Below, piece by piece: positions 14,391-53,096 of a DNA stretch of 64,000 nucleotides. The first letter of the stretch is position 1. The number at the start of each line of letters is the position of its first letter. A model generated the notes under the pieces. It searched no databases. It saw only the letters and a program-made list of their open reading frames with translations, and was not told the origin of the DNA. Source of the stretch: an uncultured bacterium. Its GTDB lineage: Bacteria > Auribacterota > UBA3054 > JAPLST01. The translations under genes and the position numbers were made by a program. The stretch is from positions 84 through 64,083 of the forward strand of contig CAYNJC010000025.1 in assembly GCA_964397565.1 (NCBI GenBank), written 5' to 3'.

Positions 14391-14611
14391 ACTAATGCGT
14401 GCGCGTTCTCCTTTGCAGCATCCTTGTAGCCGCCTGCGGCGAGGGCGGCTTCTGCAGCCGCGGTCATCCGCGCCGTTGACGGGATCGCCGCCGGTGGCGG
14501 GATCCCCGCCTTTGACGGGACTAGGCTGGTGCCTTAGCTAGCCAGGCCAGCTCCAAGCAGGCGCCCGCGGCCACAATTGAAATGCCAACGAGTAAGCGTA
14601 CTCATTAGTAA
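14391..14611 (+). mobile_element. MITE-like repeat, copy A (long form with 94-bp nested insert at 14469-14562)
   Basis: Terminal inverted repeats ACTAATGcGTgCGC and GCGTACTCATTAGT. The core gtagccgcc-gcgg-gagggcggcttctgcagccgcggtcatc is shared with copies at 20938, 24886 and 52874. Confidence 0.8.
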
Positions 14612-14615
14612 GATG

Positions 14616-14644
14616 TTGCAACGCCATGGATGAATTGCTATAGT
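14616..14644 (+). promoter_or_regulatory. Sigma70-type promoter TTGCAA-N17-(TGc)TATAGT, leaderless configuration
   Basis: ttgcaa at 14616-14621 and tatagt at 14639-14644. Only 7 nt separate the -10 box from the ATG at 14652, and there is no Shine-Dalgarno. The -35 box sits 5 nt downstream of MITE copy A. Confidence 0.6.
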
Positions 14645-14651
14645 ACTCATC

Positions 14652-15680
14652 ATGCACACAACATTGACCGGAGCTTACCTGCGTCTGCGGTGGGCGCTAT
14701 TCACGGTGGGTGGCACCGTCGGGTTGGTGGTGGTGCTGGCTGGTTGCGGGCGCCACGCGTCGGCGCTTGCGGGCACGGCCCGGCCCCTCTATCGGATCGC
14801 ATTCGCCTCGTTCGGGCCGGATCTGGCGGCAGACAATGCCATCCAGGGCTACCTGGACGGCTTGCGCGCCGAAGGCATTGAAGAGGGCCGCAACCTGGCG
14901 GTCATCCGCAAGCACGCCTTTGGCGAAATCAGTCAGTTGCCGCTGATGATGCAGGTCCTCGATGCCCAAGACCTCGATTTGATTGTGCCCATGACGACGC
15001 CGGGGCTGGCGGCTGCGTTCGGGGCGGTCAAGAGCACGCCGATGGTTTTTGTCTACACCTACGATCCGCTCGGTGCGGGCGCGGGCAAGAGCTTCGCCGA
15101 CCATCTGCCGCGCGTCACGGGCGTGGCGTCGTTCCCGCCCATTGAGGAAACCATGGCTGTCATCCTCCAGCTGGTGCCCCATGCCCGGACGGTCGGGACG
15201 CTCTACAACGCCGCGGAAGCCAATTCGGTCAAGGCGGTTGGGGTGGCGCGTGCCGTGCTTGCAGCCAAGGGCGTCGCGCTGGAGGAAGTGACCATCAGCA
15301 GCACGGCTGACGTGCAACTCGGGGCGCAGGCGCTGCTCGCGCGGCACCCGGATGTGATCTGGATCACCGGCGACAACACCGTGCTGCAAGCGCTCGAAGG
15401 CGTGATCAAGCCCGTGACGGACGCCAAGCTGCCGCTCATCCTGAATGATCCCGAGTTTGTCGAGCGCGGTGCCCTGGCCGCTATCGGGATCGGCTGGCAT
15501 GCCAGCGGCATGGCCGCGGGAAAAATGGCGGCCCGCGTTTTGCGCGGCGCGCAGACGGCCACAATGCCCATTGTGGCACTGGCCCAGCGCCGCATTGTCC
15601 TCAATCACGACGTGGCCCGCAAGCTGGGGGTGGTGTTCCCGCCCGCCTTGGCGCGGGAAGCGGCACAGCCGCCACGGTGA
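14652..15680 (+). CDS. ABC transporter substrate-binding protein (ABC_sub_bind/BMP-like family)
   Basis: N-terminal TM/signal segment. YRIAFASFGPD ... LDLIVPMTTPG ... VFVYTYDP pattern resembles the PF04392-type family. No cognate permease or ATPase gene nearby. Confidence 0.65.
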   Translation: MHTTLTGAYLRLRWALFTVGGTVGLVVVLAGCGRHASALAGTARPLYRIAFASFGPDLAADNAIQGYLDGLRAEGIEEGRNLAVIRKHAFGEISQLPLMMQVLDAQDLDLIVPMTTPGLAAAFGAVKSTPMVFVYTYDPLGAGAGKSFADHLPRVTGVASFPPIEETMAVILQLVPHARTVGTLYNAAEANSVKAVGVARAVLAAKGVALEEVTISSTADVQLGAQALLARHPDVIWITGDNTVLQALEGVIKPVTDAKLPLILNDPEFVERGALAAIGIGWHASGMAAGKMAARVLRGAQTATMPIVALAQRRIVLNHDVARKLGVVFPPALAREAAQPPR

Positions 15681-15718
15681 CGACGATTTATGCTATCATA
15701 TCCATATTCACTTACCGG

Positions 15719-16459
15719 ATGAACCCCATGAAACGCATCAAACAATTCCTGATTCTATTGCTGGTGCTGCTGATCGGCGTCGTGCTGCTGCGCAATGTCA
15801 TCGTCCGCCTGGCGCTGCCGCCGCTGGCGCGGGCGCTCGCCGGCGTGCAGGTCGCCGTGGGTAACGTGGCCATTGGCCTGCGCGCGCCGCAGATTGCGCT
15901 GCGGGATGTGCACGTGATGAATCCAGCGGGCTTTCCGTCCGAGCCAATGCTGACCGTGCCGGAAGTGTACCTGCAGTACAGTCGGGCATCCTTGTTGCAG
16001 GACACTGTCCGCGTCCTGAGTGCGCGCCTGCACATCAGCCGCATCGTCATTGGTCGCAATGCGCAGGGCGCCGTCAATGTGCGTGTCCCGCCGGATGGCG
16101 GCAGCGGCAGCAGCACCGGCAGTGGGGCAAAGCCGAAGAAGAATATCGCCTTCGAACGCCTGCATCTGGTCATCGACGACGTGGTGCTGAAAGATTATTC
16201 CGTCACGCCGCCGCGTGAGTTTGTCGTGCCGGTCAACCTGGATGAGGACGTGGCCAACCTCACCAACCATGCCCAAGTGGTGGCGATCATCGTCGAGCGC
16301 GCCATGCAGCGCATTCCGGTTGACATGCTGGCCCAACAGGGCTTGGCGGCGCTCTCGCGCTCGCTGGGCGGCGGCAACGCGATCAACGTCAGCAATGTGC
16401 AGGCGATCATTCGCGACGCAAGCGCCACGCTGAAATCACTGCTCAACAAGAAAAAATAG
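15719..16459 (+). CDS. Hypothetical membrane-anchored protein
   Basis: N-terminal TM (FLILLLVLLIGVVLL). Extended -10 TGCTATCAT at 15691-15699. Start could be 15719 or 15728. No family recognised with confidence. Confidence 0.55.
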   Translation: MNPMKRIKQFLILLLVLLIGVVLLRNVIVRLALPPLARALAGVQVAVGNVAIGLRAPQIALRDVHVMNPAGFPSEPMLTVPEVYLQYSRASLLQDTVRVLSARLHISRIVIGRNAQGAVNVRVPPDGGSGSSTGSGAKPKKNIAFERLHLVIDDVVLKDYSVTPPREFVVPVNLDEDVANLTNHAQVVAIIVERAMQRIPVDMLAQQGLAALSRSLGGGNAINVSNVQAIIRDASATLKSLLNKKK

Positions 16460-16460
16460 C

Positions 16461-17846
16461 ATGAAAGAAACCACCGCAGCAGACGACCAGAGCAACGCGG
16501 CGCTGCCGCTGTCGCCATGGTATCTCGAGCATCCGCTCCGGGCGGCCCGCTTTGTGCATCGCGGCATCTGGCAGATCGAGAGTGCGCGCCTGCCGCGCGC
16601 CAAAGCGCTGTTGCTCAAAATCGCCCGGGTGCTGGTGCTCTCGGCCTTCAAATTTGTCGAGGATAAGTGTCTGTTGCGCGCGGCGGCGTTGACCTTGTAT
16701 CTGTTGCTCTCGCTCGTGCCGCTGGTCGCGCTGGCCTTCGCCATCTCGAAGGGCTTCGGCATGGACGAGCTGTTGCAGAACAAGCTGCAGGAACTGGAGT
16801 TGCAGAAAGAAGTGATTTCGCATATCACCTTGTTTGCCCGCAATCTGCTGGACAAGACCAGCGGCGGCGTGGTCGCCGGCGTCGGCGTCGCGTTCTTGTT
16901 TTGGACCGTGTTGCAGGTGCTGGGCAATATCGAGGAGTCCTTCAACGCCATCTGGGGCATCACCAAGTCGCGCGGCTTCGGGCGCAAATGCACCGACTAT
17001 TCCTCGATCGTCATTCTCTGCCCGCTGCTCTTGATCGTCTCCAGCAGCTTGACCGTCATGATTAACAAACAAGTGCAGTTCATGGCCAGCCAGTTTGAAG
17101 TGCTGGGCATGGTCGCGCCGCTGATCATTCGCGCGCTGCGCTTCTCCACCTATTTGATCATCTGGATTCTGTTCTCCTTCCTGTATCTCTTCATCCCCAA
17201 CACGCGCGTGCGCTGGTCCACTGGCATTATTGCCGGGATTGTCGCCGGCACGATTTTTCAATTGGGCCAGTTCGGTTACGTCACCTTTCAAATCGGCGTG
17301 GCGCGCTATAATGCCATATATGCCGGCTTCGCCGCCCTGCCCTTGTTCATCATCTGGCTGCAAATGAGCTGGATGATCGTGCTGTACGGCGCCGAATTTG
17401 CCTATGCCTGGCAGCATGTGCAACAGTATGAATTTCTCGATGAAAGCTTGCGCGCCAGCGCCGCGACGCGCGCGCGCATGGCCTTGATCATTGTGCGCGC
17501 CATTGTCGCGCGTTTCACGCAGGGGGCCGCGCCGTTCTCGCTGGCCGAGCTGCAGGCCACTCTCGCCCTGCCGCTGCGCCTGTTGCAGCAACAATTGGAC
17601 GCGCTGGTTGCCTGCGGCGTCTTGGCCGAGACGCGCGCCGCCGATCCGGTCGGTATCACGTATCAGCCCGCGCGCGACACCGCCCTGCTCAGTATCAACA
17701 ATGTGCTCAGCGCACTTGAGCAACACGGCGCACAGGACGTCCCCCATGCGCCGACCGCCGAGGCGGCGGCAGTGACCGCAGCGCTGGCTGAGTTGAGCGC
17801 CGCGCGCGCGCAGTCGCCCGCCAACCGCCTCATCCGCAACCTGTGA
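16461..17846 (+). CDS. YihY/BrkB family membrane protein with C-terminal extension
   Basis: FNAIWGITKSRGFGRKCTDY and a multi-TM core typical of the YihY family, plus a ~120-aa soluble tail. Confidence 0.75.
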   Translation: MKETTAADDQSNAALPLSPWYLEHPLRAARFVHRGIWQIESARLPRAKALLLKIARVLVLSAFKFVEDKCLLRAAALTLYLLLSLVPLVALAFAISKGFGMDELLQNKLQELELQKEVISHITLFARNLLDKTSGGVVAGVGVAFLFWTVLQVLGNIEESFNAIWGITKSRGFGRKCTDYSSIVILCPLLLIVSSSLTVMINKQVQFMASQFEVLGMVAPLIIRALRFSTYLIIWILFSFLYLFIPNTRVRWSTGIIAGIVAGTIFQLGQFGYVTFQIGVARYNAIYAGFAALPLFIIWLQMSWMIVLYGAEFAYAWQHVQQYEFLDESLRASAATRARMALIIVRAIVARFTQGAAPFSLAELQATLALPLRLLQQQLDALVACGVLAETRAADPVGITYQPARDTALLSINNVLSALEQHGAQDVPHAPTAEAAAVTAALAELSAARAQSPANRLIRNL

Positions 17847-17958
17847 TGTTGCCCATGCGATGATGCTGTCTTTGTGAGTCTCGTGCCTGCCTGTGGCCAT
17901 GATTCTTCTGCGGCAGGCGCCAATGGCTACAAACGACAAAAAATGTCGATTGTCGAGG

Positions 17959-17983
17959 AAATTCGTTTGCGGCGAACGAATTT
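17959..17983. repeat. Palindromic hairpin repeat AAATTCGTTyGCGGCGAACGAATTT (family 2)
   Basis: 10-11-nt arms. Near-identical copy at 34019-34043 and a related copy at 55972-56006. Confidence 0.8.
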
Positions 17984-18021
17984 AGAACGGGCGCAATAGC
18001 CAACGTCAACACCCTCTGCCC

Positions 18022-18050
18022 AAGTTTCGAGTTTCAAGTTTCAAGTTTCA
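18022..18050. repeat. Heptamer tandem repeat (AGTTTCA x3-4)
   Basis: aagtttcg agtttca agtttca agtttca, immediately upstream of the fucosidase promoter. Confidence 0.85.
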
Positions 18051-18061
18051 TACCCCCGCCA

Positions 18062-18090
18062 TTGACAGCGCGGCGGCGGCATGCTATTAT
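18062..18090 (+). promoter_or_regulatory. Sigma70-type promoter TTGACA-N17-TATTAT
   Basis: ttgaca at 18062-18067, exact 17-nt spacer, tattat at 18085-18090. Upstream of the fucosidase ATG at 18126. Confidence 0.6.
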
Positions 18091-18125
18091 GCTCGCACAT
18101 TGATCTTCACCACCCGGAATTTGCT

Positions 18126-19433: not shown

Positions 19434-19486
19434 GACCGGCGGTGGTCCGACTCCGGCATGTCCTGCCGGAAAATGTTTGTGCTCAC

Positions 19487-20749: not shown

Positions 20750-20937
20750 TACGGACCTCGTCTTGCTGGCGAACTACTTCCATGCAGTTACTACTCAGTG
20801 CATGCACTACTTGACATAGAGGGTAAAGAGATGAACAGAGCAACAGGAGCCGGCACATCCTTATGACTGCTGGTTCTCTTCCTGCTCTTTCGACCTCTGG
20901 TCCTCTTCGTTACAGCGCAAAGTAAATGTAAATCTTA

Positions 20938-21066
20938 TTACTAATGAAACCGCTTTCTACGTTGCAGTGTCCGTGTAGCCGCCCGCGGTGAGGGCGGCTT
21001 CTGCAGCCGCGGTCATCGCCCGCGGCCACAATGGGCATGACACCAAGTAAGCGCATGCATTAGTAG
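20938..21066 (+). mobile_element. MITE-like repeat, copy B (short form)
   Basis: TTACTAATGAAACCGCTTTCTAC ... AGTAAGCGCATGCATTAGTAG. By my manual alignment it has 13 mismatches to copy C over 129 positions. Confidence 0.85.
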
Positions 21067-21218
21067 TATCATACGGCATATAGCACAACATGTCAAGACT
21101 ACGCACGTGATTTTCAATCATTTGACAAAGCATTACGCACATGCTACACTGTCACCATCTTGATTTTTTGGCGTAGGTACACTAAAGAACACCTAGTGGA
21201 ACTAAAGGAATCTTACTC

Positions 21219-22622
21219 ATGCGGAATACGACAAATATCGTCGTGATCATCGTAGACACATTGCGCGTGGCGGATGTGGGATGCTACGGGAACGGGCACG
21301 TACACACGCCCCATCTGGATGCGTTGGCCCGACGGAGCCTTCGTTTCACGCGCGCGTATCCGGAGAGCCTCCCCACGATCCCCGTGCGTCGAGCCCTGCA
21401 CACCGGCCGTCGCGCGTATCCTTTTCGCGATTATACAGCCTGCAAGTGGGGAACCGTCTGTACGCCTGGTTGGCAGCCGCTCGCTGAAGATGAAGATACG
21501 CTGGCCGAAAACCTAGCCGCGGCAGGTTATCAGACGGGGTTTGTGTGCACCACGCAGCACTGCTGGAATCCCGGTTTCAACTTTCAGCGCGGCTTTTGGC
21601 AGTGGGAATTTGTGCGCGGTTATTCCGGTGAAGATCGCTGGAATTCGCCGTTCGCCGTTCCCCGCGAAGCGCTGTCACGCTACGGGGCTGCAGATGCGCT
21701 GCTTGCCAAGCCGCATGCCGGACTGGGTGCGCCGATGGTTCTGGCCAACCGCGGCGTCAGCATGATTGACGAAGAAACCGCCACGGCCAAGGCGTTCACC
21801 TGGGCTGCTCGGTTCCTGGCAGATAATCGCGACGTCCCGTTCTACCTGCTGATCGATTCGTTTGCACCCCACGAGCCGTGGGAAGCTCCACAGAAGTACT
21901 ACCAGCTCTACGGGGATCGCGACTACCAGGGGACGAAGCATCTTTGTTCCTGTTACGGACCGGCTGATCGCTATGCCGTTGAGGAACTCAACTACATGAG
22001 GGCGCACTACCAAGGGCTGGTCACTCACGTCGACCACTGGTTCGGGGTCTTCATGGAGACGCTGGACAAGCTGGAACTTGCAAAGAACACGGCGGTGTTG
22101 CTTATCAGCGACCACGGAACCAACTTCTGTGAGAATCCACGAAAGGTGATCGGAAAACCATCCGACTCAATGTATCCAAGCCTCATGCGGCTGCCATTGT
22201 TCCTGAAAACGCCGGAGGAGCACGCCGCCGGAACCGTGTGCCACGAACAGGTCTACAATTTCGACCTGACTGCAACGGTCTATGACTTGGCCGGGGTCGC
22301 GTCGGCCCAGCGCATTTCAGGGCAGAGCCTCTACCCCCTTTGCGGTGGAAGAGGCCAGTGGCAACCACGCGAGTATATTACGTGCCGGTACGCAAACTCG
22401 CTGTGCTACCTGGATGATTCGACCTGGGCGCTGGGCGACATTGACGGACACCTCCAGGAAGTCTTTGATGTAAAAGACGATCCCGAATGCAGATCGCCGC
22501 TGGAGCAAAAGGATGCTGAACCCCGGTGGGAGCGCGCATGGAGACGGTTGCTTGCTGACGCCGGCGGGGAGTTCCCCGACTACCGTGGCGCGCAGAAAAC
22601 GGACGCTCTTGGGCGCCGCTAG
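21219..22622 (+). CDS. Sulfatase-family (alkaline-phosphatase superfamily) protein with Thr at the formylglycine position
   Basis: NIVVIIVDTLRVADVGCYG ... LPTIPVRRALHTGR aligns to the C/S-x-P-x-R-x4-TG sulfatase signature with Thr in place of Cys/Ser. No signal peptide. Confidence 0.75.
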   Translation: MRNTTNIVVIIVDTLRVADVGCYGNGHVHTPHLDALARRSLRFTRAYPESLPTIPVRRALHTGRRAYPFRDYTACKWGTVCTPGWQPLAEDEDTLAENLAAAGYQTGFVCTTQHCWNPGFNFQRGFWQWEFVRGYSGEDRWNSPFAVPREALSRYGAADALLAKPHAGLGAPMVLANRGVSMIDEETATAKAFTWAARFLADNRDVPFYLLIDSFAPHEPWEAPQKYYQLYGDRDYQGTKHLCSCYGPADRYAVEELNYMRAHYQGLVTHVDHWFGVFMETLDKLELAKNTAVLLISDHGTNFCENPRKVIGKPSDSMYPSLMRLPLFLKTPEEHAAGTVCHEQVYNFDLTATVYDLAGVASAQRISGQSLYPLCGGRGQWQPREYITCRYANSLCYLDDSTWALGDIDGHLQEVFDVKDDPECRSPLEQKDAEPRWERAWRRLLADAGGEFPDYRGAQKTDALGRR

Positions 22623-22729
22623 ATGACTCTCAACAATCACATCGAACCTCCGACGTGCACCGCGCTTCATGCGCGCCGTTCGCCAAGCCAGAACGACCGC
22701 TGCGCCGGAGATTCACGGAGGTATGTCGC

Positions 22730-24718
22730 GTGAAAACACAAACAAGTGCAGAACAGAGCATCACCTTGAACCACGGCGTGATCGTGGTGGATGAGAACCA
22801 GCCTGCGTATGTGCAGCATGCCGTCGGGGAACTGGCAGAGTATCTCAAAGAAATCACTGGCAGTGAGATAGGTATAAAAAGTGCACCGGTGCCGGATGCC
22901 CCGCTCCAGATCGTCGTGGGCGGGCCAAGCGTGCAGAAGGTAGCCCCCGATCTCTGGCAGGCACACGCGGAAACTCTGGGGCAGGAGGGCTTCCTGATCC
23001 GCGCGCTGCCGCACGGCCGCGGGACGGCCTTGATCGTGATGGGTGCCACGCCCCAGGGGACCAATTATGGCGTGATCGATCTGATGAAGCGGATTCAGGT
23101 GCGGGAGCAATCGGCCTTTGTCTGCACTACGAACGATGTCATCATCAGACCTTCCTTTCCGGTGCGCGGCATGCATCTGAACGGCTGGGCGTTCAAGTAC
23201 CCGCACACCTTTCGATGCTGGAAAGAGGCTGACTGGCGGCACTACGTGGATCTCCTCGCCTACCAGGGTGTCAACCTTTTCTTCATCTGGCCCTTCATGG
23301 AGATCATGCCGGTGCCCCTCTCGGCGGAAGACGAGGAGTACCTGCACGAGGTGCGGCGCGTCGTAGACTACGCCCAGCGACAGCGCGGCATGGAGGTGTG
23401 GGTGTTCCAGAGTGCGAACCGGGTGGCGGTGTCAGACTGCGGAGTGCGCGATCCGCGCCTGCGCCCCTATTGGGTGTTGCAGGCGCAGGGCGACTTTCCG
23501 GCCGCGGGCCAGGTCGACATGGACCCGGCCAATCCGCAGCAGTTCGAGGCGATCATGCAATCACGCGAGGCGCTGTATCGCATCGTCAACAATGCCGACG
23601 GCTACTGCACGATTGACAACGACCCGGGTGGGATGGAACAGAGTCCCGTCGGCGATTTCATGAAGATCTTTACGGCCTCCCGCGCGCTGCTTGATCGGCT
23701 CGCCGTCCTCGGGCAACGCACGAAATTGATCCAATGGCTGTGGACCGGCTGGGGTGTCGGCGGGCGGTGGTGGGCCGCAGACTGCAACCCGCAGGAGCGG
23801 CATGACTTCATGCGGGAAATGATCCGCGCGATGAAGGAGCTACGGGAACCCTGGTGGATCGTTGCGGGCCGGCGGGAGTATCTGCCGGCATGCGCGGCCG
23901 AAGGGGTATTGGCCAAAACGGTGTACCTGCCCTATAGCATCATCGAGGACGAGCCGTCGCGCCCACGCACGCAGCACAACTTCCCGAACATGCGCGATCA
24001 TTTGGACGCGCTGTCATCCTATCCGGGAATTGCAGGGGTCATGGGCAATGTGCAGACGCCGCTGCTGCAGTTCCCGCACGTCTACAGTTTTCTTTCCTCC
24101 GCCTGGGACTTTGAGTCTCGGCGGCGAAGCCCGCGCGAAGTCCTCCTGGAACTGGCGCGGCACCTCTATCCCGACCAGGCGGAGGTGCTGGCCGACTGCT
24201 GGATAGCCCTGGCGTCGTGCGGTCGAGCGCACATGGACGAACTCGTTGGCTGTCTGGAGCGGTTGACGGCCGAGGACTGCTTGGTCCGACCAGGGATGTT
24301 TGCGCGCAAATTGTTCCCTCATCGTCTACAGATTACGCGGGACTTGCTTTGGCAGTTGAAGGGCCGACTGGCGTTCGAAGCGTTACGGGCGGGCGCAACT
24401 TCCGACGCGCGGCCGGAAACGTGCGCGACGTTGATCGAGGCGTGGCTGGACGCAGAACTGGCGTGGGACCAGCAGCACGGCTGGTCTGTCTATTGGCGCA
24501 CATTGGGTCGCGCGTGGGACCTTATGCCCGTAGCGGACGCGGGATTCCCGCAGATCCTCGCGAACGTGAAGAAGGTCTTGGGGGGCACCGCCGACGAGCC
24601 GACTCTGGATTTGTTCCTGGAGCCGATATGCCAGCGCCTGATGCGCAAATACGACGCATGGGTGGTGGCGCAGTGTGCCATCGCGCCCTTGAAGAAAGCC
24701 ATCCTGGAAGTAAAGTGA
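22730..24718 (+). CDS. Hypothetical protein, putative glycoside hydrolase-like
   Basis: In-frame GTG at 22730 preceded by GGAGG (22717-22721). The N-terminal alpha/beta module followed by a TIM-barrel-like region (PVRGMHLNGW ... YQGVNLFFIWP) is an impression only. Confidence 0.5.
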   Translation: MKTQTSAEQSITLNHGVIVVDENQPAYVQHAVGELAEYLKEITGSEIGIKSAPVPDAPLQIVVGGPSVQKVAPDLWQAHAETLGQEGFLIRALPHGRGTALIVMGATPQGTNYGVIDLMKRIQVREQSAFVCTTNDVIIRPSFPVRGMHLNGWAFKYPHTFRCWKEADWRHYVDLLAYQGVNLFFIWPFMEIMPVPLSAEDEEYLHEVRRVVDYAQRQRGMEVWVFQSANRVAVSDCGVRDPRLRPYWVLQAQGDFPAAGQVDMDPANPQQFEAIMQSREALYRIVNNADGYCTIDNDPGGMEQSPVGDFMKIFTASRALLDRLAVLGQRTKLIQWLWTGWGVGGRWWAADCNPQERHDFMREMIRAMKELREPWWIVAGRREYLPACAAEGVLAKTVYLPYSIIEDEPSRPRTQHNFPNMRDHLDALSSYPGIAGVMGNVQTPLLQFPHVYSFLSSAWDFESRRRSPREVLLELARHLYPDQAEVLADCWIALASCGRAHMDELVGCLERLTAEDCLVRPGMFARKLFPHRLQITRDLLWQLKGRLAFEALRAGATSDARPETCATLIEAWLDAELAWDQQHGWSVYWRTLGRAWDLMPVADAGFPQILANVKKVLGGTADEPTLDLFLEPICQRLMRKYDAWVVAQCAIAPLKKAILEVK

Positions 24719-24885
24719 TCCGTCTGGAAAAAGGAGTGCGCACGAGGGGCCATTGGGTGCTAGTGGGGGCGGACCTAAACACACAGTTGCCCTTCATGGT
24801 GTGGCATCATCAGAAGGGCTGCATTTGACCGATAGACCGCCGTTTTGCACAGCAAAATCGGCCAAATAAGGATACGCGGCCCCTC

Positions 24886-25014
24886 TTACTAATGAAACCG
24901 CTTTCTACATTGCAACGTCCTTATAGCTGCCCGCGGTGAGGGCGGCTTCTGCAGCCGCGGTCAGCGCCCGCGGCTACAGTTGGCATGGCACCTAGTAAGC
25001 GCATTCATTAGTAG
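24886..25014 (+). mobile_element. MITE-like repeat, copy C (short form)
   Basis: Same termini and core as copy B, in the same orientation. Confidence 0.85.
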
Positions 25015-25052
25015 ATACACCTTTGATACACCTTTGCTTGATCAGCGTGCCA

Positions 25053-25142
25053 CGCCGTAGGCGGGATCCACGTCGATGGCGGGATCCACGCCGCTGGCGG
25101 GACTAGGCTGGTGCCTTAGCTAACCAAGCCAGCTCCAAGCAG
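25053..25142 (+). repeat. Free-standing copy of the ~94-bp GGCGGGATC/...CTCCAAGCAG module
   Basis: ggcgggatccacgtcgatggcgggatccacgccgctggcgggactaggctggtgccttagctaaccaagccagctccaagcag is related to the insert nested in MITE copies A and D. Confidence 0.75.
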
Positions 25143-25195
25143 CCAGCTTTGCCTTCGCGGCTGCGCGACTTCGTGGCGAGCACCGCATTGGCGCT

Positions 25196-25224: not shown

Positions 25225-25230
25225 ATCCCC

Positions 25231-39382: not shown

Positions 39383-42300
39383 ATGAAACCAACCTTGCTC
39401 CGCATCCGCGTCATCTCTTTCTTTGTGGTGTTTTCACTTCGGCATGCGGCACACGCGCGTTGGGCGCTGGTCGTGTGTCTGTGCGCCGCGGGCACCGCCT
39501 TGGGCGGCGCACGCATCAATGGCACCGGCGTTGTCTACAGCACCGTGCAGGCCGCCGTGGATGCCGCCCAGCTTGGCAATCGCGTGCACATCGCCACCGG
39601 CCTGTACTTTGGTACCGTGAATGTGCCGCGCTCGCTCACGCTGGCCGGTGGCTATGACACCAACTGCACGGTGACGCTCGGCCGGCGTTCGGCTTTGAGT
39701 GTCAGCGGGCTCGGCAGCGTCTTGGAACTCACGACGGAAACCAACATGGTCACCCTGACCGACCTCGAATTCACCGGCGGCAATGGCTTCCGTGGCGGCG
39801 GCGTCTATCTTGGGTTAGGCAACACCATGTTCATGGACAACTGTCTGGTGCACAGCAACAGCGCGCAGATCGAGGGCGGCGGCATCTGGGGCGGCGTGGG
39901 CAGCAGCCTCATCTGCAGCAACACGATTGTTTGTAGCAATACCGCCGCGTACACCGGCGGCGGCATCGCGTTTCAAGGCAATCTGCTGATGGTACGCGGC
40001 GACCGCATGCGCATTTTCGCCAACCGGGCCGAGAACGGCGGCGGCGTGCACTTTGGTGGCGGTGTCTTCTGGCAAACCGACCAGGCCGATATCTATGCCA
40101 ACGTCGCCTCGAATAGCGGCGGTGGGCTGATGCTGCTAGGCTACGCCACGGCGATTGTCTGCGGCCCGAATTGTACGATCGGCGTGCCCGGCGGCGAGAA
40201 TGTCGCGCTGACCGGCAACGGTGGCGGCGTCTGCGCCACGGTGGCCAGCATGCTGGTTGTCTCGAATGAGGCCGCAGTCCTGCATAATCGCGCCGCCCTC
40301 GACGGCGGCGGCATCTACGCCAGCAACAATATCACCGTGTTGCTTGCGGATCGCGCGTACCTCGGCTACGACTCGCCCTTCGTCACCAATCTGGCCGGTC
40401 GCAACGGCGGCGGGCTGTGCGCGTTGCGCTCGATCGTCCTGCTGACCAACGCCGTGCGCGTGTCACGCGGCGTGGCCGAAGCCGGCGGCGGGCTCTATCT
40501 TGGTCTCGGCACGCGCTGTGACATTGTTGATTCCAAGGTGCTCACCAATCGCGCCGAGACCGGCGGCGGCATCCGCTGCGTCGGCGCGTCTCTGCGCATT
40601 GCCGGTGAAGACACGGATGTTCGCGACAATTACGCGCTCGAAGGTGGCGGCGTCTCGTGCAGCGGCGGCACGTTCGTGCAAGAGACCGGCGCGGATATCC
40701 ATGCCAATATTGCCGTCACCTTTGGCGGCGGCGCATTTCTGGCCGACGGCGTCACCGGTGTTGTGCGTGGCAGTGGCACGGCCATCGGTTTGCTGCCGCG
40801 CTATGACAACATGGTGACCAATGGCGACGGCGGCGGCATGTATCTTGAAAATGCGTGGCTGGTGATCAGCAACAGCGTAGGCTTCGCGCGCAACAGTGCT
40901 TCCCGCGACGGCGGTGCGCTGTATGCCGTGAACAGCATGATTGAATGCTATGACGGCGTCTCATTTGGCACGGGCAACAGTGCCAGCACCAACAGCGCCG
41001 GGCGCGATGGCGGCGGCGTGTTCGCCGATGCCTGCGGGCTGACGTGCAGTGGCAACGTCGGCTTCGAGTGCGGTGTCGCCGGGCGCGACGGCGGCGCGTG
41101 TCGCATGGTCAACAGCACCGGCGTGTTCATATTGTGCGAGATGCTCCACAACCGGGCTGATCGCGGCGGCGCACTCTTCGCCGATGGTGCCTCCTTCGTC
41201 CAGATGTCAAGTTCGTGCGTGGCATGGAATTGGGCCACCAATTATGGCGGCATCGGCCTGACGGACACGCGCAGCCAGCTCAGTGTGGATGCCAGCGACA
41301 TTGTCAGCAATTACGCCCACACCTTCGTCGGTGGGCTCTATTGCGCCGCGCCGCTGATGGCGTCCGACGTGCGCATCAGCGCCAATCGCGCCAGCGGCAT
41401 GGGCGGTTGTTATCTGGTGAGCTGTACCGCCACGTTCACCAACTGTGAATTCAACAACAACACGGCGGCCATGGACGCCGGCGGCCTGCAGGTCGCCAGC
41501 GCGATGGTCACCCTGCGTGATACCTCGTTTGCCGACAACGTCGCCGGCATGGGCGGCTATGGCTTTGGCGACGGCGGCGCGGCGGTCATCAACAACTCGC
41601 ACATCTCGTACGAGCCGCTCAGCGCCAATTGCAGTTTCGCGCGCAATGCCGCCTGGAACGGCGGCGCGATTTACGCCGATGCCGCGGAACTCGACATTAT
41701 CGCGCCCGCCAATCGCTTCACGACCTTCTTCAACAACACGGCCAGCAACTGCGGCGGCGCCGTCTATCTGCGCGGCGGCAGCACGCTGAATGTGCAGGGC
41801 AACGTCCGCTTCACCGGCAATGACGCGCTGCACGGCGGCGGTCTGTGCGTCATGACGCAGGGCACGGTTTGGGTGGCGGTCTCCAACAATTACGCGCCGC
41901 GCTTCTACGCCAACACGGCGCGCGGCAGTGGCGGCGCAATCTACGCCGCGGGCCCGGTCTGGCTCTCGCTTCTGGGCGTCGAGATTGGCGCGCCGAATTT
42001 CGGCAATCGCGCGGGCGCCACGGCCGGCACGAGTGGCGGCGGCGGCCTGGCGCTGTTTGACCGCGCCGCCATGCTGGGCATCAACTGTGCCGTGTGCGAG
42101 AACAGCAGTGCCAATCTCGGCGGCGGTCTGCTCGCCTTGGGCGGCTGCGATGTGCGCTTCGACAGCGATGTCCCCGCGCCCGTTGCCGGGCCGCTGCCGC
42201 CCTCCGTGTTCCTCGGCAATTACTCCTCCAATTCCGCCGGTGGCGCGTTTATCGGCGATGACTCATTCGCGCGCTTTGCCAGCACCTGCATCGCCAGCAA

Positions 42301-43198
42301 TCGCGCCATTGTGTTTGGCGCCGGTGGCATCTACTTCAGCCGCAGCACGGGCGAATTGGTCAATGTCGTCATGGCGCGCAACAATTCGGCGAGCGAAGGC
42401 GACGGCATTTATTGTTATGAAAACCGCGCGTTGCGCCTGCTGCACTGCACCATCGCCGACAATTCCTCGTACGGCGTGTATAGTCCCAGTAACCCGTTGA
42501 GCGCCACCAACTGCATTGTTTGGGGCCACTTTGCCGAGCAAATCAGCAGCGGCAAATCCGTGGCATATTCTGACGTCGAAGACGGCTATGCCGGCACGGG
42601 CAATCTGAACGCCAATCCCCTCTTCGTCAGCGCCGGCCTGTTGAACTATGCCCTGCAAAACGGCTCGCCGTGCATCAACACCGGTGTGTTTGCCGGCGTG
42701 ACGGAGGACATTCTCGGCTACCCACGCCCGTTTGGTCCGCGCGTTGATCTCGGCGCGTATGAATTCGTGCCGGAGCCGGGCGGCGCACTGCTGCTCATGG
42801 CGCTGGCCGGCATGGCGGCGCGCATGCGGCGCCGGGCACGGCGTGCTGATGGCGTGTGCCGGCATACGCCGCCCGCACCGGCGGCGTGGCGGCACCGCAC
42901 GACCAATGGCCTACGGCGCGACAGTTGTACTGCCTGTGTCTGCAGGCGGCACGACGTGCGTGAAGCGCCGCGCCAGGATCATCACATACTCGACGATGTC
43001 TGTGCGAACGGCACTCGGCCCGTGCGGCACTTCGCCGCGGAAAAACAGGCAATCACCACTGCCCAAGCGATAGATGGTGCCGGCATGGCTGTAGTCCAGC
43101 ATGCCTTTCACCACATAGATAAACTGGTCGCCTGGCGCTGTGTTGGAGATGGGCTTGAAACTGCGGCGCTTGAGTCGCACCAGGAACGGGTTGAATAA
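39383..43198 (+). CDS. Giant Pmp-repeat/right-handed beta-helix surface protein with internal PEP-CTERM motif
   Basis: Many GGG(I/V/A)-type and FxxN repeats (FARNSASRDGGALYA, FFNNTASNCGGAVYL, FTGNDALHGGGLCV). VPEP-GGALLLMALAGMAA-RMRRRARR lies at 42770-42844, but the frame stays open for 117 more codons. Confidence 0.8.
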   Translation: MKPTLLRIRVISFFVVFSLRHAAHARWALVVCLCAAGTALGGARINGTGVVYSTVQAAVDAAQLGNRVHIATGLYFGTVNVPRSLTLAGGYDTNCTVTLGRRSALSVSGLGSVLELTTETNMVTLTDLEFTGGNGFRGGGVYLGLGNTMFMDNCLVHSNSAQIEGGGIWGGVGSSLICSNTIVCSNTAAYTGGGIAFQGNLLMVRGDRMRIFANRAENGGGVHFGGGVFWQTDQADIYANVASNSGGGLMLLGYATAIVCGPNCTIGVPGGENVALTGNGGGVCATVASMLVVSNEAAVLHNRAALDGGGIYASNNITVLLADRAYLGYDSPFVTNLAGRNGGGLCALRSIVLLTNAVRVSRGVAEAGGGLYLGLGTRCDIVDSKVLTNRAETGGGIRCVGASLRIAGEDTDVRDNYALEGGGVSCSGGTFVQETGADIHANIAVTFGGGAFLADGVTGVVRGSGTAIGLLPRYDNMVTNGDGGGMYLENAWLVISNSVGFARNSASRDGGALYAVNSMIECYDGVSFGTGNSASTNSAGRDGGGVFADACGLTCSGNVGFECGVAGRDGGACRMVNSTGVFILCEMLHNRADRGGALFADGASFVQMSSSCVAWNWATNYGGIGLTDTRSQLSVDASDIVSNYAHTFVGGLYCAAPLMASDVRISANRASGMGGCYLVSCTATFTNCEFNNNTAAMDAGGLQVASAMVTLRDTSFADNVAGMGGYGFGDGGAAVINNSHISYEPLSANCSFARNAAWNGGAIYADAAELDIIAPANRFTTFFNNTASNCGGAVYLRGGSTLNVQGNVRFTGNDALHGGGLCVMTQGTVWVAVSNNYAPRFYANTARGSGGAIYAAGPVWLSLLGVEIGAPNFGNRAGATAGTSGGGGLALFDRAAMLGINCAVCENSSANLGGGLLALGGCDVRFDSDVPAPVAGPLPPSVFLGNYSSNSAGGAFIGDDSFARFASTCIASNRAIVFGAGGIYFSRSTGELVNVVMARNNSASEGDGIYCYENRALRLLHCTIADNSSYGVYSPSNPLSATNCIVWGHFAEQISSGKSVAYSDVEDGYAGTGNLNANPLFVSAGLLNYALQNGSPCINTGVFAGVTEDILGYPRPFGPRVDLGAYEFVPEPGGALLLMALAGMAARMRRRARRADGVCRHTPPAPAAWRHRTTNGLRRDSCTACVCRRHDVREAPRQDHHILDDVCANGTRPVRHFAAEKQAITTAQAIDGAGMAVVQHAFHHIDKLVAWRCVGDGLETAALESHQERVE

Positions 43199-43516: not shown

Positions 43517-43552
43517 GGGTGATCCGGGGTGATCGTTCGTGTGTGCGTGGCC

Positions 43553-43581: not shown

Positions 43582-43613
43582 CAAACCATCGAGTTGCACA
43601 ACAAACAATATAG

Positions 43614-43642
43614 TTGATTTTCGTGCAACAATATGCTATATT
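43614..43642 (+). promoter_or_regulatory. Sigma70-type promoter TTGATT-N17-(TGc)TATATT
   Basis: ttgatt at 43614-43619 and tatatt at 43637-43642. Overlaps the TGCA(C)AACAA-AATAT direct repeats. Upstream of the 43745 gene. Confidence 0.55.
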
Positions 43643-43744
43643 GAATGCTGATGCGCGCCAGTCCGTGCCGCTGGCACTGCGGGCTATCCTGCCGACACCG
43701 CACGGTTGGCGCGCGCGTATGATAACTCTCACGCGAGACTCACG

Positions 43745-46678: not shown

Positions 46679-46683
46679 ATACC

Positions 46684-46720
46684 GCGGGAACGGCGCGCCG
46701 TCACGGCGCGCCGTTCCCGC
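46684..46720 (+). terminator. Perfect 17-bp-stem hairpin between two PEP-CTERM genes
   Basis: gcgggaacggcgcgccg-tca-cggcgcgccgttcccgc. No U-tract follows, so terminator function is uncertain. Confidence 0.35.
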
Positions 46721-46747
46721 TCATTGCCTCTCTACACGAGCCCCCCC

Positions 46748-50125: not shown

Positions 50126-50242
50126 CGGCGTCGCGGAGTGATGTATGGGAACAAGCGGCGCGGCACGCAGGTCGCTTCGAAGTGCTGCCCGCAATTCCGT
50201 TTGACATGGCGGCGGTTGAAGCGTACAATGTTGCCCAGCACC

Positions 50243-51082
50243 ATGACGCAGACCACGACCATAATCGCGCCGCCACGCCGCTGGCTTTCCTTCAACTGGC
50301 GCGAGTTGTGGCGCTATCGTGATTTGTTCATCGTCCTGGCGTGGCGCGATATCAGCGTGCGTTACAAACAGACCGTGTTCGGCGTGGCCTGGGCCGTGTT
50401 TCAGCCGATCAGCGCCATGGTCATCTTCACCTTCATCTTCAACCGCGTCGCCAAGATCGAGAGCGGCGACGGCACGCCCTATCCGGTCTTCTTGTACACC
50501 GGCTTGCTGCTGTGGCAGTACTTCGCCGGCATTCTTTCAAAGGCCAGCAATGCGTTGGTCGCCAATGCCTACCTGCTCCAAAAAGTTTATTTCCCACGCG
50601 TGATCATTCCGGCCACCACCGCCGCAACCGGGCTGGTGGAGCTGGGCATCGCCGCGATAGTGCTGGCTGGATTGATGCTGTGGTACGGCTGCGCGGTGCA
50701 CTGGCTCGGCCTGGCGCTGCTGCCGCTGTTACTATTGATCACGATGTCGGCAGCGCTCGGCTGCGGCTTGTTTTTGAGCGCCGTGCACATCAAGTATCGC
50801 GACGTCGGCCACGTGCTGCCGTTTCTGATCCAGCTTCTCATGTATGTGACGCCGGTGCTGTATCCGGTCAGCATGCTGGCGCGCTATCCGACCATTCGCG
50901 CGCTGATGCGCTGGCTCAATCCGATCGCGGCGGTCATCACCACTGCGCGCGCCGGCTTGCTCGGCCACGCGGCGGTGGACTGGTCCTCGCTGGGCATTGC
51001 CGCGGTCTCGGCGCTGGTGATGTTCGTCGGCGGGCTGTGCTATTTCCGCAACACGGAGCGCTACTTTGCAGACCTGGCATGA
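50243..51082 (+). CDS. wzm: ABC-2 type polysaccharide export permease
   Basis: WRELWRYRDLFIVLAWRDISVRYKQTVFGVAWAVFQP is typical of Wzm/TagG/KpsM permeases, with ~6 TM. Start uncertain (50228 or 50243). Confidence 0.8.
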   Translation: MTQTTTIIAPPRRWLSFNWRELWRYRDLFIVLAWRDISVRYKQTVFGVAWAVFQPISAMVIFTFIFNRVAKIESGDGTPYPVFLYTGLLLWQYFAGILSKASNALVANAYLLQKVYFPRVIIPATTAATGLVELGIAAIVLAGLMLWYGCAVHWLGLALLPLLLLITMSAALGCGLFLSAVHIKYRDVGHVLPFLIQLLMYVTPVLYPVSMLARYPTIRALMRWLNPIAAVITTARAGLLGHAAVDWSSLGIAAVSALVMFVGGLCYFRNTERYFADLA

Positions 51083-51132
51083 GCACCGGCGGCGCGGAGC
51101 GAGCCGTCAGTTTCTTTGTGGCACTGGTCCCC

Positions 51133-51159
51133 TTCAATGTTCAATGTTCAATGTTAATG
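51133..51159. repeat. Heptamer tandem repeat (TTCAATG x3 plus a degenerate copy)
   Basis: ttcaatg ttcaatg ttcaatg ttaatg, between the permease and ATPase genes. Confidence 0.9.
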
Positions 51160-51175
51160 TGAAACCTAGTTAAGC

Positions 51176-52474
51176 ATGCCCTCCCCCGCCATTACCGTCT
51201 CCGGTCTCAGCAAAGTGTATCGCATTGGTGCACCGCGCGAACCGTATTTGACATTGCGCGACAGCGTCGCCGGCGCAGCCACACAGGTCATGCGGCAGGT
51301 TGCGCGCCTGGCGACGGGCGCGGCGCGCGGCGCACGCGACGGCGAAGAGTTGTGGGCGCTCACGAATGTCAGTTTCGAAGTCAACCAGGGCGAATGCTTC
51401 GGCATCATTGGCCGCAATGGCGCGGGCAAGACGACTTTGCTGAAGATTCTCAGCCAGATCACTCCGCCAACAGCCGGGCGGATCATTTGTCGCGGCCGCG
51501 TCGCCAGTCTGCTGGGTGTCGGCACAGGCTTTCATCCCGAACTGACCGGGCGCGAGAATATTTTTCTGAACGGCACGATTCTGGGCATGACGCGCGCCGA
51601 GGTGCGGCGGAAGTTTGACGAAATTGTCGCCTTTGCCGAGATCGAGCGCTTCCTGGAGACGCCCGTCAAGCGCTACTCGAGCGGCATGTATGTGCGCCTG
51701 GCATTTGCCGTTGCGGCCCATCTCGAGCCGGAGATTTTGGTGGTAGACGAAGTACTGGCGGTGGGCGACACGGCCTTTCAGAAGAAGTGTCTGGGCAAAA
51801 TGGAAGCTGTCGCCAGTCATGGGCGCACGGTGTTGTTTGTCAGCCACAACATGGCGGTCATTGCGGCGTTATGCAAGCAAGCGGTTCTGTTGGAGAGCGG
51901 CCGCGTGGCCGCAGCGGGCCGCGCGGACGACGTGGTGCGCGCGTATCTGACCACGGCGGCGGCCGAAGGTACGTCGGCGCAAGCGTACCAGACGATCGCG
52001 CCGGTAGAGCATGACGCGGCGTGGGGCGGCACCAGCCGCATTGCGTTTCGCTCGATCCGACTGGTGAATAATGCCTATCCGACCTTCACGGTGCACTGGA
52101 AGGAACCGATCACGCTCGAAGTCGAGTTTGCAGTGCAACAGCCGGCGCGCAATGTCGTGTTCTCCCTAACGGTCTCCACGCTCGAGGGCGTTGGCATATT
52201 TCGCGTGCACAGCAATGATGCAGGCGGGCGCTTGTTCTCCTTCGAGCCGGGCAGTCACCGGATCAGCTTGGTGGTCGAGAATGCGCTGCAAGCCGGCAAT
52301 TACGTTGTGGCGCTGGACGGCACCACGGCGGTGGGCAACGTGCCGCTCGCTCGCGTTGCAAGAGCGGCGGGGCTGGAAGTGTTGGATGTCGCGTTGGGCG
52401 AGGAACTCTCGCCGCAGCGCGGCGGGCATTTGGTTAACGGCGCGGCCTTGTGGTCGGAGCCGGTGCGGTGCTGA
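51176..52474 (+). CDS. wzt: Polysaccharide ABC exporter ATP-binding protein with Wzt-like C-terminal domain
   Basis: Walker A GRNGAGKTT, signature YSSGMYVRL, Walker B ILVVDE, plus a ~170-aa beta-rich C-terminal extension. Confidence 0.82.
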   Translation: MPSPAITVSGLSKVYRIGAPREPYLTLRDSVAGAATQVMRQVARLATGAARGARDGEELWALTNVSFEVNQGECFGIIGRNGAGKTTLLKILSQITPPTAGRIICRGRVASLLGVGTGFHPELTGRENIFLNGTILGMTRAEVRRKFDEIVAFAEIERFLETPVKRYSSGMYVRLAFAVAAHLEPEILVVDEVLAVGDTAFQKKCLGKMEAVASHGRTVLFVSHNMAVIAALCKQAVLLESGRVAAAGRADDVVRAYLTTAAAEGTSAQAYQTIAPVEHDAAWGGTSRIAFRSIRLVNNAYPTFTVHWKEPITLEVEFAVQQPARNVVFSLTVSTLEGVGIFRVHSNDAGGRLFSFEPGSHRISLVVENALQAGNYVVALDGTTAVGNVPLARVARAAGLEVLDVALGEELSPQRGGHLVNGAALWSEPVRC

Positions 52475-52620
52475 GCCGAAAACCGAAAACTGCTGCCGCA
52501 ACCGCACTCCTTTCTCTCACAAAGGCACAAAGCCACGAAGGATGTTGCATGGTAAACAGTAATCAGTGATCGGTGATTGAAGTGTGGAATAATGGCGGGC
52601 TGGAAGTATCAATGCTGATT

Positions 52621-52719
52621 ACTGAAAACTGAAAACCGAAAATCTCGCCGCCGGCGGGACTCCAAGCAGCTGAAAACCGCTGCCCGCACGCCACGCGCTC
52701 CGCGCGGGGCATGCAGTTG
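52621..52719. repeat. Mosaic intergenic repeat, second copy
   Basis: actgaaaactgaaaaccgaaaatctcgccgccggcgggactccaagcagctgaaaaccgctgc ... catgcagttg, related to 35511-35624. Confidence 0.75.
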
Positions 52720-52873
52720 CTGCCATTCTTCTCACAAAGACACCACGGCACAAAGAAGCGACACGCATAGTTGCCGTTTGCAATCGACATTTTATGTCGT
52801 TTGCATCGCCGGTTGTAGCCACGCCGCCCGGCGTGGATGCTGCCGCTGCCACTTATCCCTTATTCATTCCTTA

Positions 52874-53096
52874 TTACTAATGAGAGCGCTTTCTACTTTG
52901 CAGCGTCCTTGTAGCCGCCCGCGGTGAGGGCGGCTTATGCAGCCGCGGTCATCCGCGCCGTTGACGGGATCGCCGCCGGTGGCGGGATCCCCGCCTTTGA
53001 CGGGACTAGGCTGGTGCCTTAGCTAGCCAGGCCAGCTCCAAGCAGGCGCCCGCGGCCACAACTGGCATGACAACAAGTAAGTGCTTTCATTAGTAA
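52874..53096 (+). mobile_element. MITE-like repeat, copy D (long form with 94-bp nested insert at 52954-53047)
   Basis: TTACTAATGAGAGCGCTTTCTAC ... AGTAAGTGCTTTCATTAGTAA. By my reading the insert is identical to the one in copy A. Confidence 0.85.

Follow-up and report, generated by a model that had tools for sequence, protein, structure and literature searches.

The question and its most likely answer

Four copies of a short palindromic repeat lie in the same orientation in the stretch of DNA analyzed here (the window, 64,000 nucleotides from an uncultured bacterium represented solely by metagenome bins), which raises the question of whether they are mobile elements or modules with a function in RNA or regulation. 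A sequence-only reading had described them as a MITE-like family and had suggested, from their shared orientation, a structured RNA or a regulatory function. The results presented below made it likely that the repeats belong to a high-copy family of non-autonomous MITEs that inserts at TA, was mobilized by an IS630-type enzyme, includes long copies bearing a cassette and shows a single orientation in the window by chance. The genome carrying the window is referred to as G000, and that of one other species of the genus as G001.

Structure of the four copies in the window

When the window was searched with nhmmer, four matches were obtained, all on the + strand and with no others (14391-14610, 20938-21065, 24886-25013 and 52874-53095), so that the copies were found where the sequence-only reading had placed them. 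The features of the window were the following:

11721-11850, strand not assigned: one copy of another dispersed repeat, with CTTAAG at 11746-11751
14391-14611, + strand: copy A, long form of 221 bp, arm haplotype "H1"
14469-14562, + strand: central cassette of copy A, 94 bp, boundaries ±2 nt
20938-21065, + strand: copy B, 128-bp basic unit, TA on both flanks
24886-25013, + strand: copy C, 128-bp basic unit, TA on both flanks
25040-25102, + strand: free-standing REP-like hairpin array (ggcgggatccacgNcg...), 27 bp past the right end of copy C
52874-53095, + strand: copy D, long form of 222 bp, intact termini TTACTAATGAG...TTTCATTAGTAA
52954-53047, + strand: central cassette of copy D, 94 bp, letter-identical to that of copy A

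The basic unit of 128 bp formed one long imperfect palindrome, with a perfect 9-bp terminal inverted repeat (TIR), TACTAATGA, contained in a longer inverted repeat that extends imperfectly over about 45 nt and is complementary at about 29 of 44 positions; the GC-rich core has two local hairpins. Both GC hairpins noticed earlier (gccgccc/gggcggc and gccgcgg/ccgcggc) were invariant in the four copies, and the recomputed comparison of B and C gave again 13 differences in 129 positions (89.92% identity). The long imperfect hairpin proposed for the element as a whole was also borne out, with z-scores from -4.2 to -6.0 on both strands. In an RNAalifold analysis of 106 distinct copies only the central hairpins were predicted, and not the long stem; the pair table revealed modest covariation at three pairs (11/119, 12/118 and 24/106) and many conserved mismatches.

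Copies A and D corresponded to the basic unit, as present in B and C, plus a 94-bp insert. In copy A this cassette comprised three 18-nt REP-like hairpin units (CGCCGNTGRCGGGATCNN) followed by TAGGCTGGTGCCTTAGC, TAGCCAGGCCAG and CTCCAAGCAGGC; the arms of A and D differed at 17 positions, while their cassettes were identical. The free-standing array beside copy C indicated that cassette modules exist outside the MITE too. The imperfect termini described before were recovered as TTACTAATGA...TCATTAGTAA in D and as ...CATTAGTAG at the end of B and C, and the left end of A read cCACTAATGCG in place of TTACTAATGAG. Because of this decayed terminus, copy A is considered an old and probably immobile one. 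Copy B may have arisen from a long copy by deletion, since it carries a T at model position 79, a state otherwise linked to the cassette. All four copies had been considered intergenic, which held with respect to Pfam-supported ORFs; nevertheless, the last 16 nt of D overlapped a 213-aa ORF without a family match.

Copy number and distribution of the family

The search of the whole G000 genome produced 220 nhmmer matches, an abundance far in excess of chance. Once matches less than 300 bp apart were joined, about 184 loci were obtained, and hence the repeat was not confined to this region; 108 were full length. The family accounted for 0.59% of the 4.47-Mb genome, with units ranging from about 115 to 260 bp. 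Only one or two of the matches were contained in called genes. Convergent gene pairs flanked 42 copies, compared with about 20-23 expected, but the gene positions came from a crude caller of our own (coding density 77%) and the statistics of gene context are therefore approximate.

The family was also present in G001 and absent from the 39 other relatives searched; it is a previously undescribed family restricted to the genus. One insertion was common to both genomes (L016 versus C1:158264) and another was found in G001 alone (L024 versus C5:85072), a presence/absence difference between the two species; at the G000 empty site opposite the G001 copy, the ends were decayed and the TA was not clean. 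Additionally, 52 of 56 elements recurred without any difference in other JGI metagenome datasets, chiefly in contigs of Ga0268276, Ga0268280 and Ga0268284. A total of 48 matches had a contig end within 300 bp; therefore, the repeat breaks the assembly, and it explains many of the contig breaks of the genome bin.

Insertion at TA

The dinucleotide TA was invariant at both ends of 97 full copies, the next outer base being T on the left in 63% and A on the right in 59% of them. The termini TACTAATGA/TCATTAGTA were complementary and 88-99% conserved, and the ends of the family together with their flanks can be written as (T/A)TA, then CTAATGAG...CTCATTAG, then TA(A/T). The check for target-site duplications was positive in paralogous empty sites, where a single TA became two upon insertion. 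In at least eight independent insertions, the flanks rejoined with a single TA aligned without gaps to uninterrupted paralogues. Examples of such empty sites were CTTAAG (five empty copies), TTTTAATG, CGCTAAGA, TTATAACA and GTTATGCG, and the target preference was (T/A)TA(A/T), often TTAA. One of them lies in the window itself: the CTTAAG at 11746-11751 is the uninterrupted form of a site that bears the MITE in three other copies of that dispersed repeat (G000 C31:29024, C4:166237 and C27:28910).

The change from one TA to two is the signature of IS630/Tc1-mariner-type transposition. Given the palindromic ends, such a duplication is formally indistinguishable from the insertion of an element that itself brings one TA along. 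The description of the repeats as a MITE-like family was thus backed by copy number, TIRs, TA duplication and empty sites.

Orientation and the possibility of a functional RNA

The agreement of the four window copies in orientation was real, but it did not extend to the genome, where 94 merged loci were on the + strand and 90 on the - strand. In tandem gene pairs, 39 copies were co-oriented with the flanking genes and 49 anti-oriented; adjacent merged copies had the same orientation in 67 cases versus 53 (p=0.24). The two-sided probability of finding four out of four copies in one orientation is 0.125, and the pattern seen in the window is a sampling accident. An apparent clustering of orientations before merging (99 same-orientation neighbors versus 57, p=0.001; heterogeneity among contigs, p=0.0004) was discarded, since fragments of one element had been counted as neighbors. 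After merging at less than 300 bp the heterogeneity among contigs fell to p=0.11, and for full-length copies alone the neighbors were in the same orientation in 34 cases versus 22 (p=0.14). Trends with GC skew were not significant (p=0.07-0.09), and orientation had no link to local gene strand.

If the repeat were a functional structured RNA or a cis-regulatory module, such as a terminator, an attenuator, an sRNA or a protein-binding site, its orientation would be fixed relative to transcription. This explanation could draw on the very stable fold (z of -4 to -6), on the core (positions 41-89), where divergence was about one third of that in the outer arms (4.1% versus 13%), on an orthologous copy in G001 with 96.9% identity between flanks of 87.7%, and on the enrichment of copies between convergent genes. 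Nevertheless, orientation was unbiased relative to flanking genes, contigs and neighbors, and the element folded equally well on both strands. In the Rfam search of the window only the tmRNA at 61267-61621 reached the gathering score, and no covariance model matched the element, not even at E<=1 over 20800-25150. Hairpins were not followed by a T-run, no promoter or terminator consensus sites were present inside B or C, and many positions of the long hairpin were conserved mismatches rather than compensated pairs. Moreover, TA duplication and empty sites showed that the copies arose by transposition, and gene conversion, or an origin of the copies from a few masters, could also explain the conserved core. 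The unbiased orientation, the Rfam result and the equal folding of both strands thus left the RNA or regulatory reading unsupported, and we consider it very improbable. Annotators should be warned that these hairpins are very probably not RNA genes.

Search for a mobilizing transposase

The earlier observation that no transposase is present was extended to the whole contig of the window, which had no DDE_3, Y1_Tnp, DDE_Tnp_1 or DDE_Tnp_1_2 matches. No DDE_3 domain was detected in a six-frame search of G000 and G001. The search for an IS with matching termini was unsuccessful in both genomes, and no autonomous IS with the same TIRs was found in 80 metagenome loci, plasmids or phages. Four pairs of termini 0.3-6 kb apart were located in the genome, all around ordinary genes and with no transposase, and tblastn of the 80 metagenome loci (653 kb) with an IS630 transposase detected no partner. 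Since metagenome bins often lose multi-copy ISs, the absence of a partner is weak evidence.

Two IS630-type features were relevant in this respect:

G000 C35:5872-6147: decayed IS630-type relic, a 92-aa N-terminal HTH fragment
L040:1343-2464: intact TA-flanked IS630-type IS, in the genome of another genus of the same order

The relic was 70% identical to the intact 343-aa transposase of L040 and had the same HTH domain families, the L040 protein also containing DDE_3 and HTH_33. The TIRs of the L040 IS begin with CTAAT, as do those of the MITE; beyond TA+CTAAT the similarity was weak (17-18 of 34 positions, shuffle p of about 0.04-0.11). The relic cannot be attributed to the MITE family because its own terminus has been lost.

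Mobilization by another DDE family was also weighed, either one with very short TA-containing duplications (the ISL2 and IS427 groups of the IS5 family) or an undescribed one. Some IS5 subgroups are listed in ISfinder with short duplications, which, together with the missing IS630 partner and the weak TIR similarity to the nearest IS630 element, would suit this proposal. On the other side, DDE_Tnp_1_2 had no match in either genome, and the genome does hold an IS630-type relic. The sole DDE_Tnp_1 (IS4/5-type) element of G000 was rejected as a parent, its TIRs (ATTACAACTGATC...) being unrelated and without any match to the MITE termini. Furthermore, a strict 2-bp TA is the hallmark of IS630/Tc1-mariner elements, as for RUP and IS630-Spn1 (PMC2229807). 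Mobilization by another DDE family is accordingly regarded as improbable.

Even less credit, the least of all the alternatives, was given to a REPIN-like doublet or IS200/IS605-type derivative moved as single-stranded DNA by a Y1 (HUH) transposase or RAYT. Like REPINs, the element is a palindrome able to form a hairpin; REP-like hairpins make up its cassette, its left junction reads TTAC followed by TAATG, and Y1_Tnp, unlike DDE_3, does occur in both genomes (13 matches in G000 and 12 in G001). However, no family copy lay within 1.5 kb of any of the 13 Y1 genes of G000, and the three classical short RAYTs were flanked by REP arrays of their own, unrelated to the MITE; an association of the family with RAYTs was rejected on these grounds. 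Y1 elements such as IS608 and ISDra2 require a fixed sequence of four or five nucleotides, next to which they insert with a strand bias and without duplicating the target, whereas a TA is added when the MITE inserts and neither orientation is preferred (94+/90-, clustering not significant). In addition, the MITE ends are true inverted repeats and not direct subterminal hairpins.

The preferred explanation is then a MITE that inserts at TA and has TA on both sides afterward, a step that the empty sites document, and that would be mobilized in trans, by cut and paste, through an IS630/Tc1-mariner-type DDE transposase, as suggested by the TA insertion. As the assembly holds only a decayed IS630-type fragment, the family may have lost its mobility, or a transposase copy that failed to assemble may still serve it.

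The central cassette

All 49 long copies carried the cassette at the same model position (79/80), where the second GC hairpin has its loop. The cassettes formed a modular, nested series, with lengths between 15 and 130 nt that fell into at least 14 classes, and were composed of the genome's own REP-like hairpin modules, of which 645 units were found at 383 loci genome-wide. The distribution of the cassette is independent of the arm haplotype: no arm site was associated with it (r2<=0.02, p>0.18), while the left arm was linked to the right one (p<1e-3 for 19 of 96 site pairs), and the presence of the cassette required 33 changes on the arm tree compared with 35.7 in shuffles. Within the 28-nt and 40-nt classes the cassettes differed by 0-0.7% and the arms by 7-10%. 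Assembly chimerism is unlikely to be behind this mixing, because the same sequences recur in other JGI metagenome datasets.

Exchange between copies through ectopic gene conversion, together with slippage, would explain how the cassette spreads or changes. A bolder and rather doubtful proposal sees in it a second, independent selfish or convertible module, a REP-like mosaic specific to the loop of one GC hairpin of the MITE. Site-specific insertion or gene conversion of short tracts would carry this "parasite within a parasite" from one MITE copy to another at a pace exceeding the divergence of the MITE lineages. The orthologous copy common to G000 and G001 evolved about four times slower than its flanks; this, together with the conserved core, would fit such a module and would point to concerted evolution of the center of the element or to selection on it. 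The way in which a nearly identical modular cassette is combined with the different arm lineages offers a data set for ectopic gene conversion or secondary colonization among dispersed bacterial repeats.

Comparison with known repeat families

A close parallel was found in the Correia/NEMIS elements of Neisseria, small palindromic MITEs that have long TIRs and bear TA at either end, are high-copy and mostly intergenic, would form long stem-loops in transcripts, occur in a short form of about 107 bp and a long one of about 155 bp set apart by an internal segment and have no known autonomous partner (PMC2229807, PMC3184786). The window family shares with them the palindromic structure, TIRs, terminal TA, high copy number, short and long forms and the absence of an autonomous partner. 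Nevertheless, the sequences are unrelated (TIR TACTAATGAG... in the window family), the core of the window family is GC-rich, a variable REP-like cassette takes the place of a fixed 50-bp block, and no evidence of promoters or IHF sites was found.

RUP of Streptococcus pneumoniae and Nezha of cyanobacteria are MITEs of about 107-170 bp with about 100 copies, inserted at TA and attributed to IS630-family transposases (PMC2229807, PMC3184786), and are thus also similar as small MITEs inserting at TA. The TIRs of RUP match those of the resident IS630-Spn1, whereas the assembly of the window family holds no resident IS with matching TIRs; its nearest IS630 traces are the 92-codon relic and the IS in another genus of the order (TA+CTAAT). 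With the BIMEs and REP arrays of enterobacteria, the cassette and its free-standing relatives have in common that they are mosaics of a GC-rich hairpin unit and a few motifs in variable number. Unlike in BIMEs, no RAYT was tied to the cassette hairpin family at the Y1 loci of G000, and the mosaic occupies a single fixed position within a TIR-type MITE.

The understanding of MITEs in general is unchanged by this family, whose insertions can be used as markers of polymorphism among strains in the lake metagenomes where the population occurs.

Among MiaB homologues bearing an organism name, those above about 50% identity were all designated simply "bacterium," and the nearest named ones, at about 44% identity, came from planctomycetes. 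Concerning the genes of the window, the ORF at 39383-43198 was found to encode a beta-helix repeat protein, and not RpoB.

The MITE family and its distribution

The four MITE-like sequences of the window belong to a family that is real, abundant and restricted to its genus. They matched the description given in the sequence-only reading, and a profile search of the window recovered exactly these four, all on the plus strand. Alignment with MAFFT delimited them as follows:

Copy A, 14391-14611, + strand: long form, the basic unit plus 94 bp in its middle
Copy B, 20938-21065, + strand: basic unit of 128 bp
Copy C, 24886-25013, + strand: basic unit of 128 bp
Copy D, 52874-53095, + strand: long form, the basic unit plus 94 bp in its middle

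B and C differed at 13 of 129 positions, as that reading had stated; the two GC hairpins were invariant in all four copies. The left end of copy A was decayed. The extra DNA of the long forms (hereafter the cassette) was identical in A and D, and the arms on either side of it differed at 17 positions.

In the genome bin that contains the window as its contig C25 (G000; 4.47 Mb, 60% G+C, 106 contigs, 89.7% complete), an iterated nhmmer profile gave 435 matches, which were reduced to 220 after de-duplicating the two strands of the palindrome; 108 of these were full-length. When fragments were merged, the genome-wide copy number that had been proposed as a check came to 184 loci, which together occupy 0.59% of the genome, confirming an abundant family. 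The following size classes were observed:

About 128 bp: 56 copies
About 156 bp: 10 copies
About 168 bp: 5 copies
About 184-187 bp: 20 copies
About 210-230 bp: 9 copies

Forty-eight hits lay at most 300 bp from a contig end, and many contigs ended about 53 nt into an element; the repeat is thus a source of breaks in the assembly. The family was likewise abundant in G001, a Lac Pavin metagenome bin labelled 'bacterium' that represents the second of the two species in the genus. It was absent from 39 other relatives, the sister genus included, and no match was found among 72,556 plasmids or 50,697 phage records. The same population was present in the JGI metagenome datasets Ga0268276, Ga0268280 and Ga0268284.

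Anatomy and insertion site

The unit was a single long imperfect palindrome (register i + j = 130), running from CTAATGAG to CTCATTAG with a TA directly outside each end and with a perfect 9-bp terminus, TACTAATGA. Its paired blocks were 13-18, 20-21, 28-29, 36-39, 41-45, 48-50, 52-54 and 57-62. The mismatches between these blocks were conserved across copies, and the two arms were therefore distinguishable; the reverse strand scored only about 71% identity. The long imperfect hairpin that had been predicted was borne out by RNA folding, which was strong on both strands (z -4.2 to -6.0), and the long form also folded as DNA (z = -3.7). Divergence of the core (41-89) was three times lower than that of the outer arms, with little data behind this figure.

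The TA was invariant at both ends of the 97 full copies; on the left side, the base outside it was T in 63% of cases, and on the right it was A in 59%. Target-site duplication was checked by joining the flanks of each copy through a single TA and searching the product against the genome. Uninterrupted paralogous sequences, gapless across the junction, were recovered for at least eight independent insertions; insertion therefore makes two TA from one, at a target (T/A)TA(A/T). Because the ends are palindromic, this is formally inseparable from an element bringing one TA with it, and duplication is the standard reading of such junctions. Copy number, terminal inverted repeats (TIRs), TA duplication and empty sites thus all agreed with the MITE-like identification. 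The family works as the Correia, RUP and Nezha elements do, but by sequence belongs to none of the three.

One CTTAAG in another dispersed repeat had received three separate MITE insertions. These struck it independently, at different copies of the repeat, so this sequence is an insertion hot spot. Five copies of this repeat, which has at least six in all, are still empty; the one at 11721-11850 of the window is among them.

Between G000 and G001, one insertion was held in common (C1:158264 and L016), and one, with decayed ends, was present only in G001. The orthologous copies (C1:158264 and L016:2001-2129) were 96.9% identical and their flanks (733 nt) 87.7% (n=1); this difference may reflect concerted evolution or selection, or else two independent insertions into a hot spot.

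Orientation and the regulatory reading

The shared orientation of the four window copies had been taken as a possible sign of a structured RNA or a regulatory function. It did not hold as a property of the family: 94 merged loci were in the plus and 90 in the minus orientation, and for all four copies of one window to agree, p = 0.125. Between tandem genes, 39 copies were co-oriented with the genes and 49 anti-oriented. Orientation was unrelated to the strand of local genes and not significantly related to GC skew, and an apparent clustering of like-oriented neighbours was gone once fragments of single elements had been merged. Furthermore, the Rfam check gave no match for the MITE, and no consensus promoter or terminator was found inside B or C. 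With orientation unbiased, no Rfam match and folding on both strands, the structured-RNA or regulatory reading was not sustained. Copies between convergent genes numbered 42, against about 20-23 expected from crude gene calls; such an excess is usual for tolerated insertions.

Candidate mobilising enzymes

IS630/Tc1-mariner transposases have as their signature a strict TA duplication together with long TIRs. The RUP element of pneumococcus was attributed to IS630-Spn1 on the grounds of TA duplication and TIRs (PMC2229807). The suggested search for an IS with matching termini yielded no partner: no DDE_3 domain was detected in either genome of the genus, no pair of MITE termini enclosed a transposase, and the only IS4/5-type element of G000 had unrelated ends.

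IS630-type genes were found in 12 of 61 relatives. A complete 1.1-kb IS630-type IS, flanked by TA and encoding a 343-aa HTH + DDE_3 protein, was located in the same order (L040:1343-2464). Its TIRs start CTAAT, as do those of the MITE; beyond TA+CTAAT, the two resembled each other weakly, with 17-18 of 34 positions in common (p about 0.04-0.11). In G000, an IS630-family relic at C35:5872-6147 retained only the first 92 codons, 70% identical to the L040 protein (tblastn), and had lost its own terminus. The TA duplication, the L040 IS and this relic thus make an IS630-type enzyme the best-supported mover, its cognate copy being unseen in the searches. Two MITE copies lie within 1 kb of the relic.

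Y1_Tnp matches (Y1/RAYT-type genes) numbered 13 in G000 and 12 in G001, some of them in proteins of 260-430 aa, and no MITE copy was near any of the 13 in G000. Three of those in G000 were classical short RAYT/IS200-type Y1 transposase genes, all outside the window:

C38:17028-17372
C18:69455-69790
C4:128707-129042

On both sides of each stood long arrays of a REP family peculiar to that gene, e.g. ttcgaccccgcgcggggtcgaatgtgaatagccgtgggtgcaacccacgga, and different from the MITE family.

The central cassette and its REP-like modules

The sole unusual feature of the family is its modular, independently assorting cassette, which is worth a note rather than a headline. In all 49 long copies the extra DNA lay at model position 79/80, the loop of the second GC hairpin, and the inserts formed a nested series of modules:

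18-nt hairpin units, TCCACGCCGNTGGCGGGA, in one to five copies
TAGGCTGGTGCCTTAGC, present or absent
TAGCCARGCCAG, present or absent
CTCCAAGCAG, once or twice

Cassette state was unrelated to arm lineage, each main arm haplotype occurring without a cassette and with most cassette classes. Cassette presence was not associated with any arm site (r2 <= 0.02, p > 0.18). Linkage was seen across the cassette, between sites of the left and the right arm: 19 of 96 site pairs reached p < 1e-3, with r2 as high as 0.41. Cassette changes on the arm tree numbered 33 versus 35.7 in shuffles. The 28-nt and 40-nt cassette classes differed by 0-0.7%, and their arms by 7-10%. An assembly artefact is unlikely as the cause of this mixing, since 52 of 56 elements recurred letter for letter in contigs from other JGI metagenome datasets; at one of two differing loci, the difference was a 22-nt module. 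At C46:6946-7115 of G000, the cassette was 22 nt longer, with an extra CTGGCTTGGGAGCTGCTTGGAG, at the same locus in Ga0268284 (L069) and Ga0268276 (L129), which is either a cassette polymorphism within the population or an assembly difference.

The simplest reading of the pattern is short-tract gene conversion plus slippage among about 200 homologous copies with an invariant core. The more novel alternative would be a mobile REP-like block inserting repeatedly in a site-specific manner. The low core divergence and the conserved orthologous copy point the same way, on little data. The REP-like hairpin, (T)CC-CGCC-NNN-GGCG-GGA, had 645 copies at 383 loci in G000, only 128 of them within MITEs. 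It often stood in 18-nt tandem units and formed BIME-like mosaics with CTCCAAGCAG and other short motifs. Free-standing blocks with the module order of the cassette were found, one adjoining copy C, and no RAYT assignable to this hairpin family was found among the Y1/RAYT genes of the genome. In the window, the hairpin occurred at the following sites:

9741, 11721, 12052, 25053, 25089, 35525, 52646 and 63592

Other features of the window

The protein encoded at 39383-43198 is 1271 aa long and contains right-handed beta-helix repeats (PF13229), on which grounds its assignment as RpoB was rejected; its sole close relative, 71% identical, was in a JGI metagenome. Additionally, a tmRNA gene was identified at 61267-61621 (Rfam RF00023, 167 bits).
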